Below are positions 15,986 through 21,329 of a DNA stretch of 64,000 nt, one piece after another. Origin of the DNA: Candidatus Borrarchaeum weybense (GTDB taxonomy: Archaea; Asgardarchaeota; Sifarchaeia; Borrarchaeales; Borrarchaeaceae). The position numbers and the translations under genes were made by a program. Every line of letters begins with the position of its first letter. Positions within the stretch are counted from its first letter, which is position 1. Below the pieces are notes generated by a model. It ran no database searches and was not told the origin of the DNA. It worked only from the letters and a program-made list of their open reading frames with translations. Location of the stretch: NCBI GenBank assembly GCA_019057385.1, contig JAHQJS010000004.1:1137068-1201067 (forward strand), given 5' to 3'.

Positions 15986-17370
15986 GAGTTGTAGTAGGAA
16001 GTCCCCTTCCGACAAGTGGGGGATGAAAGCCGCTGGTCTTATATAGACTTTTTGATTATTACTATTAGTAAAGAGTTCTACGTGAAGTCTATGAAACTCA
16101 CACAGAAAATCAGGATCTTTCCGACACCAGAACAGGAAACAGTTCTCTGGAAGCTCTCAGAGAAGTGCAGACTCATCTATAACTTTGCCCTTGCCGAAAG
16201 AAGGGACGCCTATAGAACCGGGGCAAAGAGGGTGAACTATCGCACACAGCAAAACAGCCTACCGCTCATCAAAGAACAATTCCCAGAGTATAAGTGGGTG
16301 TATTCTAAGGTCTTACAGTTTGCTCTCAGGTCGTTGGCTGCTGATTACAAGTCGTTTTTTGCCCTTCGAAAAAATGGGTGCGCCGATGCTTGTCCCCCGC
16401 GATTCAAAGGAAAACAGTACTTCACCACGATGATGTATAACCAGTCGGGATTCAAGCTCGAACCTGGAAAAATTACCTTTTCCCATAAATACAATGATGT
16501 ACCTTTGGTGTTTGTCATCCCGGACAAATTTTCTTTTGACGATAAGCAGGTAAAACAGGTCGCCATCTCTTCATACAGAAGTAAATATTTTGTGACTATC
16601 ACTTATGAGTTGGAAGAACCCCGCTATGTGGATAACGGTCTGTACCAAGCCATAGACTTAGGAATTACCCACATCGTTACGGCAGTCAATTCCCAGGGTA
16701 AGTTCTTGGTGGTAGAAAATCAGCGCCCAGACAAATATTGGAATCCGAAAATAGCCAAAGTACAATCACGGAAGGACAAATGCAAGAAATTCAGCAACCG
16801 GTGGAAACTGCTAAACGAGATCAAACACAAATACGAGCGAAAGCGTGATAATCAGACGCGTGATTTCCAACATAAGCTCAGCAAGAAACTGGTGGAAAAC
16901 ACTAAAGCCAACACCATTATTATTGGCGAACTGGAAGTTAAACACATGGCACATTCGAATAAGGTGCCAAAACACATTAGACATGGGTTAAACCGCGCCA
17001 CGCAGAACAGCGGGGCGCTGGGACGGTTCGTGCATTTTCTAACCTACAAATCGAGGCGAGTAGGTAAAAGGACAATAGAAATTGACGAACGAAACTCGAC
17101 TAAAGCATGCTGGGTGTGCGGAAAACTGCATTCAATGCCAATTTGGAAACGAATTATGAGTTGTGACTGTGGTAACGTGATAGAAAGGGATAAAAATAGT
17201 GCGATCATCCTGATGAAACGTTACCTATCACAAAATGCCAAGTGGACGGGCTATCGGGTGTTTCTCGATAATCTGCGACACACAGCCAAATGTAAAACGA
17301 AAGTTTCTCCCGCAGTAGGGAGTTAGGAGGACTCGCAGGAAGCCCCATCCGTCAGGATGAGGTAGTTCAC
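15986..17370 (+). mobile_element. IS200/IS605-family tnpB-only element 2 (left boundary approximate)
   Basis: LE hairpin tccccttccgacaagtggggga; RE catccgtcaggatgaggtagttcac. Confidence 0.85.
16091..17326 (+). CDS. tnpB: TnpB RNA-guided nuclease
   Basis: HTH N-terminus, AIDLG, CWVC..CDC, ERDKNSA; canonical RuvC-II Glu position reads IIGEL, with a candidate alternative Glu in IDERNST. Confidence 0.9.
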   Translation: MKLTQKIRIFPTPEQETVLWKLSEKCRLIYNFALAERRDAYRTGAKRVNYRTQQNSLPLIKEQFPEYKWVYSKVLQFALRSLAADYKSFFALRKNGCADACPPRFKGKQYFTTMMYNQSGFKLEPGKITFSHKYNDVPLVFVIPDKFSFDDKQVKQVAISSYRSKYFVTITYELEEPRYVDNGLYQAIDLGITHIVTAVNSQGKFLVVENQRPDKYWNPKIAKVQSRKDKCKKFSNRWKLLNEIKHKYERKRDNQTRDFQHKLSKKLVENTKANTIIIGELEVKHMAHSNKVPKHIRHGLNRATQNSGALGRFVHFLTYKSRRVGKRTIEIDERNSTKACWVCGKLHSMPIWKRIMSCDCGNVIERDKNSAIILMKRYLSQNAKWTGYRVFLDNLRHTAKCKTKVSPAVGS

Positions 17371-17766: not shown

Positions 17767-18531
17767 ATGGACTGCTCTAATGGAATTTTTCTTCGATATG
17801 TCAATGGAGAACAAAAACTTCAACTTGACAAACCTATTCTTTTGATGGGCTTACCTGGAATGGGAATGGTAGGAAAGATGACGATAGCCTATCTTATCGA
17901 AGAGCTTCTTGCAGAGGAAGTAGTTCGAATTTATAGTTCATTTTTTCCAAGTATCTGTTTCCTCGATAAAGGAGGTTTAGGAAGACTTACTCGTTGCGAG
18001 ATTTATGCAGTAAATGACACAAAACCTAATTTTCTTCTATTTACAGGAGACTGCCAACCACTTTCATGCGGCATGGTACAGGTGATATCAACTGTTTTAG
18101 ATGTCGCTCAAGAAACTAATGTTGATACAGTCATCGCAATTGGTGGTTTACGCACCCAAAATGGACCAGATGTCGCTGCTTTTGTCTTTTCAGAAGATGA
18201 TGCTACATTTCTTGAAAAGTATGATGTAGAGATGTTGTCTTCAGGTCAAGTTACAGGCGCTGTTGGTGTTATGACTGCTCTTGCAGCTGAGAGGGATATT
18301 AAGTCATTTGGAATGTTAGGAAGGCTCTATTCTGAGGCCCCAGTAGACCCGATTGCAGCTCAAAATGTGTTAAAAAAACTAATAAACCTTTATAAGCTTG
18401 ACCTCGATCTTGATAAGTTTTCTGATATGATTGAAGAAGCACGAGAAAAAGAGGTTATACGAGAAAAACTTGTTGAGTCCATTAGAGAGAAAACTGATGA
18501 AGAAGAACGATCATCTTGCTATTTTATCTAA
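17767..18531 (+). CDS. PAC2 family proteasome assembly chaperone-like protein
   Basis: GLPGMGMVG, GDCQP, IGG, DPIAA motifs. Confidence 0.88.
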   Translation: MDCSNGIFLRYVNGEQKLQLDKPILLMGLPGMGMVGKMTIAYLIEELLAEEVVRIYSSFFPSICFLDKGGLGRLTRCEIYAVNDTKPNFLLFTGDCQPLSCGMVQVISTVLDVAQETNVDTVIAIGGLRTQNGPDVAAFVFSEDDATFLEKYDVEMLSSGQVTGAVGVMTALAAERDIKSFGMLGRLYSEAPVDPIAAQNVLKKLINLYKLDLDLDKFSDMIEEAREKEVIREKLVESIREKTDEEERSSCYFI

Positions 18532-18560: not shown

Positions 18561-19259
18561 TTACTTCTCAATTTCTTTATTTTGTTTTTCATTGATCAGA
18601 TCTATATATAATGAATTAAAAACGGCATACAACTTCTCTGCCAATTTTTTCCCAATCCCCTTTACTTCCATGAAAGCCTCTGGTTTTGCGGTCACTAAAT
18701 TTTCAAATGTCTTGAATTTGATCAGTAATTTTCTTGCAAGTTCATCATTGATACTAGGGATGCCTTTTAGAATGTAATTTTGTAACTCAGAGATCTCTGT
18801 TGGTGCTTTTGTCATGCGAGTTGCAACACGAGTAACTCTATCGTTTTTTTCGCGTCGAATGATCGTTAAAAGAAGTTTAACAGTATCCTTCGTATTTCGA
18901 GAGAAAATTACAGGCATGTCGAGGTGTATAAACAGTGTAGCCAATGTCTCTAGAAGGATATTCCGCTCCAAATCTTTGCTGTCATCATCCTCTAAGATAA
19001 ATATAGGCCTTATAAATTGGTTTTTTAGCAATTCTGCATTTTTAAAGATATTACGCGTTTTAATTGATTCGTGAAACTCTTGAAATGTTTTAATGAAGCC
19101 CCCAATATCTTCCGAAACTATGAATTGAACTGGTTCTAAAGACTTTACTTCTAGAATAATGCCTCGTTTATTTAATTCATTGATAATGTCTTTTCTAACT
19201 GAAGAATCAATCATAATTTCAAAATCTTTTTCGTTTTTGGATTTAGATTCTGTATTCAA
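18561..19259 (-). CDS. ERCC4-domain + (HhH)2 protein, catalytically degenerate XPF paralog (ERCC1-like)
   Basis: Colinear with short archaeal XPF, but GDY..ERKxxxD reads VQF..FIKxxxE; HhH motifs IPSIN and VKGIG. Confidence 0.8.
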   Translation of the reverse strand: MNTESKSKNEKDFEIMIDSSVRKDIINELNKRGIILEVKSLEPVQFIVSEDIGGFIKTFQEFHESIKTRNIFKNAELLKNQFIRPIFILEDDDSKDLERNILLETLATLFIHLDMPVIFSRNTKDTVKLLLTIIRREKNDRVTRVATRMTKAPTEISELQNYILKGIPSINDELARKLLIKFKTFENLVTAKPEAFMEVKGIGKKLAEKLYAVFNSLYIDLINEKQNKEIEK

Positions 19260-19563
19260 CTTATATTACTCCATCGCGAATAGATAGACAAAGGCAAACA
19301 AAATCGAAAATGTTCTTATGCATAGAATAATCTTTCTTTTAAAAATATCATAATTTCTGCTACATCATCATATAATTTAACTAAATTACTGAAAATGTAT
19401 TCATCAGAATTATTACTTAATTTTGTCGGAATGAAAATCTAAAATCCTTTTATGAAAATGACTTAGCAGAAAATCCTTGACTATTAACAAGTTCAATCTG
19501 CGGAGGTTTTTTTCATAAGTTTAAATTACTGAAAAAGTAATAAAACTCTTAAAAAGGCATTTA

Positions 19564-20217
19564 GTGAAACCAGCAATGAAAAATACCAAAGTATACCAGA
19601 ACGAAGCTGAATTCAGTGTCAAAGCTAAGAGATATGTTTATGCTGCAAAATGTTTTAATTACTTAGCAAAACTCTTTTTAGAAAATAATAACGTTGATAT
19701 GGCTGCACAATATTTTGTTAAGGGCGCAGAACTATGGTTATCTTTGGAAAATTTCTTTGAAGCAGGTCAAATGTATCGTCAAGCCGCTAAATTATCAAAT
19801 CATCATTCACATCTTGTAAATAATGCACTCTCCTGTTTTTATGAAGCATTAACCACTTTTACTAACAATGCTAATTATTTTAAAGCAGGTCTTTGTGCAA
19901 AATATATAGCGTCCTGTTTTAATTCACTTGATCAAAAGGAGAAGCAATTTGAACATTTAAAACTGGCGGCTGAGTTATTTGTAAGTTCTGGAATGGAATA
20001 TTTAAAATTAAAACAATATGACAAAGCAATTAATTCTTTTGAGTATGCAGTAAGATGTTATGACTATTTAGGATTAGATTTACAATCAGAACAAATTAAA
20101 AGTAAGATTCATAAGTATAAAAACAATTTGCATTTATCTAAAGGGAAAAAAAATGATAAAATGCAATTTAATGCATCAAATAACACTCTTATGTCAATTA
20201 AAAAAAAATTTCTCTGA
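19564..20217 (+). CDS. Alpha-SNAP-like TPR protein
   Basis: Repeated AA..Y/F..AA helical hairpins (AAQYFVKGAE, AGQMYRQAA, AINSFEYA). Confidence 0.65.
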   Translation: MKPAMKNTKVYQNEAEFSVKAKRYVYAAKCFNYLAKLFLENNNVDMAAQYFVKGAELWLSLENFFEAGQMYRQAAKLSNHHSHLVNNALSCFYEALTTFTNNANYFKAGLCAKYIASCFNSLDQKEKQFEHLKLAAELFVSSGMEYLKLKQYDKAINSFEYAVRCYDYLGLDLQSEQIKSKIHKYKNNLHLSKGKKNDKMQFNASNNTLMSIKKKFL

Positions 20218-20244
20218 AAAATCATAAATTTTGAGAAATCATGT

Positions 20245-20661
20245 TTGGTGAGGTCTATGGTCAAAACAGTAACATTTGCACAAGTTATTGATCTAGATAC
20301 TCAAGTAAATATTCCTTCTGAATTTATGCAATTAATTGGCCCTCAAACTCAGAAAAATGCAGTAATCATCTATTCCCCGACAAATGACCTACTTAGAATT
20401 TTTTTCACTGACATTTCAGATATCTACAAAGTTGAGGCAAAAATAGATAGCCTTAGTCATGAATTCTTAAGCAGCTTAGGTAGTTTTTTAGGGGCACATG
20501 AAATCACTCCTCTTTATACAACTGGTTTTTGCGAGAAAGAATGCCTTTATGAGGGGTACTTTGAAATAGACCCCCTCAAGATGCCGTTAGAAGAGTTTAA
20601 AAAATATTTCTCAAATATACCGGGTATATCTGAAGTAAAAATGGTTCATTTCAAAATATAA
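20245..20661 (+). CDS. Hypothetical protein (possible AbrB-like N-terminus + ACT-like C-terminus)
   Basis: QVNIP N-terminal motif; IPGISEV C-terminal motif. Confidence 0.5.
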   Translation: MVRSMVKTVTFAQVIDLDTQVNIPSEFMQLIGPQTQKNAVIIYSPTNDLLRIFFTDISDIYKVEAKIDSLSHEFLSSLGSFLGAHEITPLYTTGFCEKECLYEGYFEIDPLKMPLEEFKKYFSNIPGISEVKMVHFKI

Positions 20662-20786
20662 TCGTTCAATTTAGCATATGCGTTAATTAACGATCTTTAT
20701 CAATTCTGAAAATGGATTAAACTCATAGAAATGTATTGAAATAGTTAATTTAGAACGTTCATGAATGAAAAAATGGTTGATTATCG

Positions 20787-21329
20787 ATGGTACAAGCGCA
20801 ATATTTTGACTCAGAAGAAGAAGCTCGCTATTTACTAAAAATTGTCCTTTTAGGAGATCCTTCAGTTGGAAAAACTAGCTTAGTAAAAAGATATGTCGAT
20901 AATATGTTTAGAATGGATTATATGATGACGATAGGCACAGATATTCGCACAAAAATGATTAGTATCAACGATGAGCTAGTAAAACTCGTCATTTGGGATC
21001 TAGGTGGCCAGCCACTCTTTGCAGATGTAAGAACTACTTACTGTAAAGGAGCAAATGGCGCTGTCCTTGCTTTCGACCTAACTCGGCAAAAAACCCTGAC
21101 GAATCTACATGGATGGGCTGAGATAGTATGGCGCTTTGTTGGAAAAGTACCAATTGCAGTTGTTGGAACCAAAGCCGATTTGAAAAGTATTCGTGAGACG
21201 TCAATGGAGCGAGCCTTAGATTTTGCTCGACTTACTGGTGCAAAAGTCTTTGAAACATCATCTAAAACTGGTGAAGGGGTAGAAAAAACATTTCAACATA
21301 TTGTTCAGCAGATCCTAGATGATCTCTAG
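20787..21329 (+). CDS. Rab/Ras-like small GTPase
   Basis: GDPSVGKT, TIG, WDLGGQ, GTKAD, ETSSK; no C-terminal Cys. Confidence 0.95.
   Translation: MVQAQYFDSEEEARYLLKIVLLGDPSVGKTSLVKRYVDNMFRMDYMMTIGTDIRTKMISINDELVKLVIWDLGGQPLFADVRTTYCKGANGAVLAFDLTRQKTLTNLHGWAEIVWRFVGKVPIAVVGTKADLKSIRETSMERALDFARLTGAKVFETSSKTGEGVEKTFQHIVQQILDDL

Follow-up and report, generated by a model that had tools for sequence, protein, structure and literature searches.

A stand-alone, catalytically dead ERCC4-(HhH)2 protein in one genus of Asgard archaea

The locus and its gene

The window analyzed here is a stretch of 64,000 nucleotides on contig JAHQJS010000004.1 of Candidatus Borrarchaeum weybense (assembly GCA_019057385.1), an Asgard MAG of 4.18 Mb in 8 contigs, of which the contig carrying the window exceeds 1.2 Mb. 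On the reverse strand of the window, an uninterrupted open reading frame encodes a 232-residue protein with an ERCC4 domain followed by (HhH)2, for which we use the term pseudonuclease (Table 1). The start codon is likely the TTG given in the table, since relatives begin with ATG-TTG (MLNTESK), the source genome has AAG in place of that ATG, and an in-frame TAA lies two codons upstream (19257-19268, reverse strand); Met16 is the other possible start. A Pfam match to PF02732 (ERCC4; 8.9e-11, 42.3 bits against a cut-off of 24) makes the protein a member of the XPF/MUS81/Hef superfamily, and all 11 members of its clade that were tested match the same family. The C-terminal (HhH)2 region is likewise recognized by Pfam, through HHH_5 (Table 1) and HHH_2 (2.2e-08). 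The linker between the two domains, for which AlphaFold2 gives a pLDDT of 51 at residues 141-150, is strongly conserved within the clade (V142, R144, T147, R148, K151, A152, and P153). The C-terminal tails vary among orthologues, with no conserved tail that could be a PCNA-binding motif.

Table 1. Features of the pseudonuclease gene, its neighbors, and two related genes of the same genome (positions are those of the window unless a contig is named)
Feature	Position	Strand	Details
Pseudonuclease, whole gene	18561..19259	-	232 aa; likely TTG start 19257-19259, TAA stop 18561-18563
ERCC4-fold pseudonuclease domain, residues 14-138	18846..19220	-	AlphaFold2 pLDDT >90; Foldseek 1J22/1J24
IDSSV in place of VDxRE	19197..19211	-	Asp18 retained; Arg and Glu gone (aligned IDS-S); invariant in orthologues
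VQF replacing (G/A)D(Y/F)	19122..19130	-	Metal-binding Asp to Gln45; Q45 and F46 invariant in orthologues
FIKTFQE replacing ERKxxxD	19077..19097	-	Glu to Phe, Arg to Ile, Lys57 kept, Asp to Glu
Linker NDRVTRVATRMTKAPTE between ERCC4 and (HhH)2 domains	18795..18845	-	Predicted flexible
(HhH)2 domain, residues 156-218, ending in Hef-type conserved Tyr218	18606..18794	-	HHH_5 1.4e-09; 1X2I phmmer 3e-09
First hairpin GIPSIN, Hef-type	18747..18764	-	Alignment to Hef-type modules
Second hairpin KGIGKK, canonical GIG	18645..18662	-	Alignment to Hef-type modules
PAC2-family protein, convergent neighbor	17767..18531	+	Pfam PAC2 1.6e-31
SNAP-like TPR protein, divergent neighbor	19564..20217	+	Pfam SNAP PF14938 2.5e-08
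Active short XPF (P0173), 241 aa	Contig C6 943029-943751	-	Own catalytic motifs intact
Helicase-only Hef paralog (P0172), 531 aa	Contig C7 35997-37589	+	Walker A and DECH intact

The pseudonuclease gene is monocistronic in the window and has no adjoining repair gene, so its context provides no functional link. Across the genus, the gene order is MFS transporter, PAC2, pseudonuclease, (in some members) TnpB, SNAP-like TPR protein, small protein, and Rab-like GTPase. The PAC2 gene thus adjoins the pseudonuclease throughout, with no operon link evident, and the pseudonuclease gene is chromosomal and stably inherited. In the window, the SNAP-like gene opens a trio (19564-21329, forward strand) completed by a 138-aa protein that matches no family and a small GTPase of the Rab/Ras type (PF00071, 4.5e-42); the same trio stands beside the pseudonuclease in relative L066, and the SNAP-like gene alone does so in L069 and L077. 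Further, a 436-aa open reading frame of the TnpB/OrfB_IS605 type (16016-17326, forward strand) separates the MFS transporter from the PAC2 gene. That site is empty in genus members G001 and G004, and in other relatives (L013 5424-6704, L066 2508-3734) TnpB is found on the opposite flank of the pseudonuclease; insertions have struck this locus repeatedly.

Loss of the catalytic motifs and preservation of the fold

The catalytic signature of ERCC4-type nucleases is GDXnERKX3D. The first-pass annotation of this DNA described an ERCC4 + (HhH)2 protein with eroded metal-binding motifs, a catalytically dead paralog whose fold is preserved, and this description holds. In an alignment of the protein with about 100 Hef-type modules and the nuclease of Pyrococcus furiosus Hef (1J22), the three motifs that together make up the active-nuclease signature (GDXnERKX3D plus DxRE) are replaced as listed in Table 1. 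All 21 database orthologues (62-99% identity) carry the same substitutions, reading IDS-S, VQF, and FIKxxxE at these places, as do the four genus members found among species-representative genomes, and GGF(I/L)KTF(Q/K)E is present in every one of the 21; none of these close orthologues retains GDY or ERK, the pattern that the annotation had named as a sign of lineage-specific decay. The DGRLFxQ motif further downstream is eroded too (TRNIFKN). Twenty-three other positions that are conserved in at least 80% of Hef sequences are still present in the pseudonuclease.

An intact catalytic signature is found in all 146 nearest clusters, although an intein splits it in one of them, as well as in each of the 43 ERCC4 sequences that we examined from 40 Asgard relatives and the source genome. 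The cluster with the intein (representative P0138, 781 aa) was considered as a second dead ERCC4 protein and rejected: it is an active ERCC4-HhH2 nuclease interrupted directly after ERK by a LAGLIDADG intein of ~560 aa (Pfam Intein_splicing 7e-14; LAGLIDADG_3, a homing endonuclease family, 4e-18).

An AlphaFold2 model built from an alignment of 111 rows has a mean pLDDT of 89.7, the inter-domain linker being its sole low-confidence part, and Foldseek matches it to structures of Hef, XPF, FANCM, ERCC1, and MUS81. Nearest to the ERCC4 domain is the Hef nuclease domain (1J22/1J24; TM 0.87, rmsd 2.1-2.2, 27% identity), and nearest to the (HhH)2 domain is the Hef HhH2 structure 1X2I (TM 0.92, 35% identity). 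The top Foldseek matches (1.9e-15) include the short archaeal XPF of Aeropyrum pernix (2BGW/2BHN), which has the same size and two-domain layout. The central domain of ERCC1 also superimposes on the pseudonuclease (TM 0.80), at 14% identity.

Distribution, parentage, and selection

In the genomes of 40 relatives from 18 families of the phylum, the four other species of the genus are alone in having orthologues (63-86% identity). The class is small and has just one further genus, the sister genus; neither it nor any of 35 other Asgard genomes has an orthologue, and their matches, at 24-31% identity, are ordinary Hef C-termini. Searched exhaustively with a HMMER profile, 1.84 billion cluster representatives yielded a single 50%-identity cluster for the pseudonuclease (452 bits), the next match being a full-length Hef at 125 bits. 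Database relatives are labelled Promethearchaeota (Asgard archaea), and a search of sequencing runs located the stretch only in DNA metagenomes from sediment, marsh, and mangrove, with no RNA run among those listed. This restriction of orthologues to one genus points to a recent and independent origin from a Hef-type module within a single genus-level Asgard lineage. The empty site was not identifiable in the sister genus (G005), where the PAC2 homologues are only 33% identical.

The first-pass annotation had suggested a search for an active XPF or Hef elsewhere in the genome, and there are two. A full-length Hef of 766 aa has VDNRE, ADY, and ERKxxxD intact and scores 898.6 bits to NF010337, and a short XPF of 241 aa has VDNRE, GDF, and ERKxxxD intact; no reasonably complete genome of the genus lacks either. 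The short XPF belongs to a clade, distinct from Hef and from crenarchaeal XPF, that is recognizable by four insertions, by a WYRKP motif that is conserved, and by its ending in IFH at the C-terminus. This clade spans several Asgard families, including MAGs labelled Hodarchaeota; genus member G004 has a second copy (53% identity; contig C13 63506-64222). A third relative in the source genome is a helicase-only Hef paralog, with an altered motif VI (QRRNRTVK) and 40% identity to the Hef of the same genome. It has just eight close clusters (54-100% identity), after which come Hef sequences at 38-40%, and in a tree it is separate from the Hef of the genus and forms a clade of its own, with a stem length of about 1.65.

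Several lines of evidence bear on the parent of the pseudonuclease. Its best NCBIfam match is Hef, NF010337 (positions 561-779 of 781, 1.6e-42), at 145.6 bits against an equivalog cut-off of 610 and with no helicase domain; the family of the archaeal 3'-flap endonuclease Xpf, NF040956, is matched at 66.3 bits against a cut-off of 300. When the PDB is searched with a profile built from the clade, Hef (1J22, 8e-15) ranks above A. pernix XPF (3e-12), FANCM (4e-5), and ERCC1 (0.003). In maximum-likelihood trees, the dead clade is monophyletic (SH-aLRT 100), with a stem of about 1.5 substitutions per site, and falls somewhere inside the Hef-type radiation. AU tests on a 39-row tree reject neither a sister relationship to the genus's own Hef (p 0.41) nor one to the short-XPF clade (p 0.65), and the pairing with the latter probably reflects long-branch attraction, the stems of both clades being long. 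The four insertions and the truncated C-end of the short-XPF clade are absent from the dead clade and from Hef, both of which have a conserved C-terminal Tyr. To judge from the profile scores together with these shared indels and the Tyr, which we consider better evidence than the trees, the parent of the pseudonuclease is a Hef-type module.

The comparison with known systems can be put in similar terms. With the nuclease-(HhH)2 module of euryarchaeal and Asgard Hef (1J22-1J25, 1X2I), the pseudonuclease shares domain order, indels, first-hairpin type, and the C-terminal Tyr. However, it stands alone at 232 aa without a helicase, it lacks the Glu and Arg of DxRE, the Asp of GDY, and the Glu and Arg of ERK, with DGRLFxQ eroded as well, and it is 23-32% identical to Hef modules, whereas these are 30-47% identical among themselves. 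Unlike the short archaeal XPF, it has lost the catalytic signature and has no conserved tail of the possible PCNA-binding kind, in addition to its low NF040956 score. The C-terminal pseudonuclease-HhH2 region of FANCM (4M6W, 4BXO, 9HJO) is also a Hef-derived dead ERCC4 + HhH2 module, and resembles the archaeal protein both in the profile search and in Foldseek (about 1e-12); it differs in being fused to a helicase, and the archaeal protein has no PND match and a separate, recent origin by the evidence above.

The reading frame is intact in all five genomes of the genus and in about 20 metagenome clusters. Pairwise dN/dS of the pseudonuclease is 0.16-0.35; in the same genomes, the C-terminal module of Hef has values of 0.12-0.16 and the short XPF 0.12-0.24. 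The gene is clearly under purifying selection, with constraint somewhat relaxed relative to Hef. The first-pass annotation had argued that the gene is not simply decaying, and dN/dS values well below 1, together with substitutions shared by all 21 orthologues, agree with that. The segments that once formed the active site (IDSSVR, PxQF, and GGFIKTFQEF) rank among the most conserved parts of the protein, which suggests that the former active-site groove may have a new, constrained role.

A candidate dimer partner, its rivals, and the question of ERCC1

To our knowledge, all characterized dead ERCC4 paralogs (ERCC1, EME1/2, FAAP24, and Spo16) are heterodimer partners, ERCC1 pairing obligately with an active XPF by way of the HhH2 domains. 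We propose, with moderate confidence and by analogy with these proteins, that the product of this gene is a lineage-specific pseudonuclease derived from a Hef module and serves as a non-cutting, DNA-binding dimer partner of an active ERCC4 nuclease, most likely Hef. In outline, a Hef-type module would have been duplicated within one genus-level Asgard lineage, diverged fast, and then come under purifying selection, losing its metal-binding and catalytic residues while keeping the ERCC4 fold, the two DNA-binding hairpins, and the structural core. The pseudonuclease would dimerize through its ERCC4 and (HhH)2 domains, as all characterized XPF/Hef-family proteins do, and form the non-cutting half of a pair whose other half is one of the cell's active ERCC4 nucleases. 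We favor Hef for that part because it is of the parent type and because known dead ERCC4 paralogs pair with a relative; the short XPF is the alternative. The resulting complex would have a single active site, and the hydrophobic groove at the former active site (F55, I56, and F59) would be available for binding of a new kind. Such a protein would be a convergent analogue of the dead subunits in XPF-ERCC1, MUS81-EME1, and FANCM-FAAP24, not their ancestor. In a three-chain complex prediction with the Hef C-terminal module, the short XPF, and the pseudonuclease, the control scored as high as the test.

The strongest rival, which we consider rather unlikely, is that the pseudonuclease pairs only with itself, as a non-cutting binder of branched or duplex DNA that would, for instance, mark or protect flaps and forks, compete for them, or regulate the access of Hef and XPF. 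The protein retains both the DNA-binding hairpins and the domains that form dimers, its gene stands alone in the genome, and a stem of 1.5 substitutions per site is long enough that its interface could have parted from that of Hef. Yet the dead ERCC4 paralogs named above act as heterodimer partners, and every genome of the genus that is reasonably complete offers two possible active partners.

An arrangement of another kind is that the pseudonuclease and the helicase-only paralog are the two halves of a second Hef, split and FANCM-like, in which a translocase would work with a non-cutting module that anchors it to DNA. The second half of such a divergent Hef could be the helicase-only paralog, whose Walker A and DECH motifs are intact: this paralog likewise forms a long-stemmed clade of its own (about 1.65), its orthologues are all close (54-100%) and then separated by a gap from Hef (38-40%), and both halves occur in the genus's two complete genomes, in G004 as a fragment. 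However, the two genes are unlinked and lie on different contigs, the helicase-only gene was not found in the carriers of the dead nuclease G001-G003 (69-77% complete), and helicase-only forms of Hef arise elsewhere without a dead nuclease. We regard the split as improbable.

It is very improbable that the gene is functionless and decaying, or that its product still cuts by means of other residues: the missing catalytic residues, a weakened TTG start, and a dN/dS somewhat above that of Hef might suggest as much, but the intact frames in genomes and metagenome clusters, the dN/dS well below 1, and the conservation of the former active-site segments speak against decay, and with three acidic metal ligands and the Arg lost, catalysis of the ERCC4 type (GDXnERKX3D) is implausible.

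The first-pass annotation went further and saw a possible ERCC1-type subunit of a eukaryote-style heterodimeric nuclease predating eukaryotes. The likeness to ERCC1, and by analogy to EME1/EME2, FAAP24, and Spo16, consists of an ERCC4 fold free of catalytic residues joined to HhH2, active paralogs in the same genome, a fold match in Foldseek, and hydrophobic residues in the place of ERK (FIK in the pseudonuclease, LFL in ERCC1). To these can be added a weak, sub-threshold Pfam match to SPO16/SCRE, an ERCC1-like meiotic pseudonuclease: PF15162 covers residues 68-158 (window 18795-19056, reverse strand) in 9 of 11 clade members, at best with 18.3 bits (E 0.0019) and thus below the 27-bit cut-off, and the list of 25 families for 79 active Hef-type modules does not include it. 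This match may be convergence or composition, and both it and the change of ERK to hydrophobic residues fit convergence. A hairpin hallmark had also been claimed, human ERCC1 being said to have KSVN in its first HhH hairpin and GLG in its second. The claim is unsupported, because active Hef normally lacks GIG in its first hairpin, which reads GLPHVS in P. furiosus and GIPGVD in the source genome; most of the 146 relatives have xPxI(N/S/D), and sequences of the form xPx(I/V)(N/S/D/G) include GFPKIN, SIPNIN, and GLPSIN. The parallel with ERCC1 is therefore moot, as active Hef has the same pattern.

We judged the relation to ERCC1, EME1, and FAAP24 by profile, Pfam, and fold comparisons. In the 11 clade members, the Pfam family of Rad10/ERCC1 (PF03834) has no match at E values up to 10, and that of the FANCM/FAAP24 PND domain (PF17949) has none. 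The PDB profile search reaches ERCC1 through the generic HhH2 region only, below Hef, A. pernix XPF, and FANCM, and identity to the ERCC1 central domain is about half that to the Hef nuclease domain (14% vs. 27%). The pseudonuclease further differs from ERCC1 in that its HhH2 is Hef-like, it has no XPA or SLX4 context, and its origin appears independent, recent, and limited to one archaeal genus. In ERCC1 itself, LFL stands in the place of ERK and the groove there binds XPA (PMC2034474). In the standard view, the one XPF of archaea is a homodimer, archaeal XPF and Hef dimerize via both domains, and ERCC1 arose in the eukaryal lineage by duplication and subfunctionalization of XPF (PMC2034474, which covers ERCC1 only among dead ERCC4 paralogs). 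The narrow range of the pseudonuclease is consistent with that view and speaks against an ancestral ERCC1 in archaea. Had the protein descended from the duplication behind eukaryotic XPF and ERCC1, a broad, ancient distribution would be expected, and what we find is one genus and one 50%-identity cluster in 1.84 billion, so that a pre-eukaryotic, ERCC1-type subunit is largely refuted by distribution and hardly credible.

We return to the pseudonuclease as a proposed partner, recent and lineage-specific, of an active relative. Dead partners such as ERCC1 are, in the textbook account, exclusive to eukaryotes (PMC2034474), whereas here a stand-alone archaeal pseudonuclease is maintained by selection alongside active relatives; a literature search found no earlier archaeal stand-alone ERCC4 pseudonuclease, which is not proof of absence. 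This does not move the origin of ERCC1 to before eukaryotes. It does show evolution repeating the same route, in which a gene is duplicated and one active site is lost while the fold and the DNA-binding hairpins are retained. More tentatively, an Asgard genus may have recently and independently reinvented the pairing of an active ERCC4 nuclease, or of a Hef translocase, with a dead paralog. The parent Hef, the second active XPF, and the helicase-only Hef are all still in the same cell, which would make this a young and tractable example of a homodimeric XPF or Hef turning into an asymmetric complex of the XPF-ERCC1 or FANCM-FAAP24 type. Because the event is young, few sequence changes separate a homodimer subunit from a non-catalytic one, and a set of four small recombinant proteins could serve to map them biochemically.
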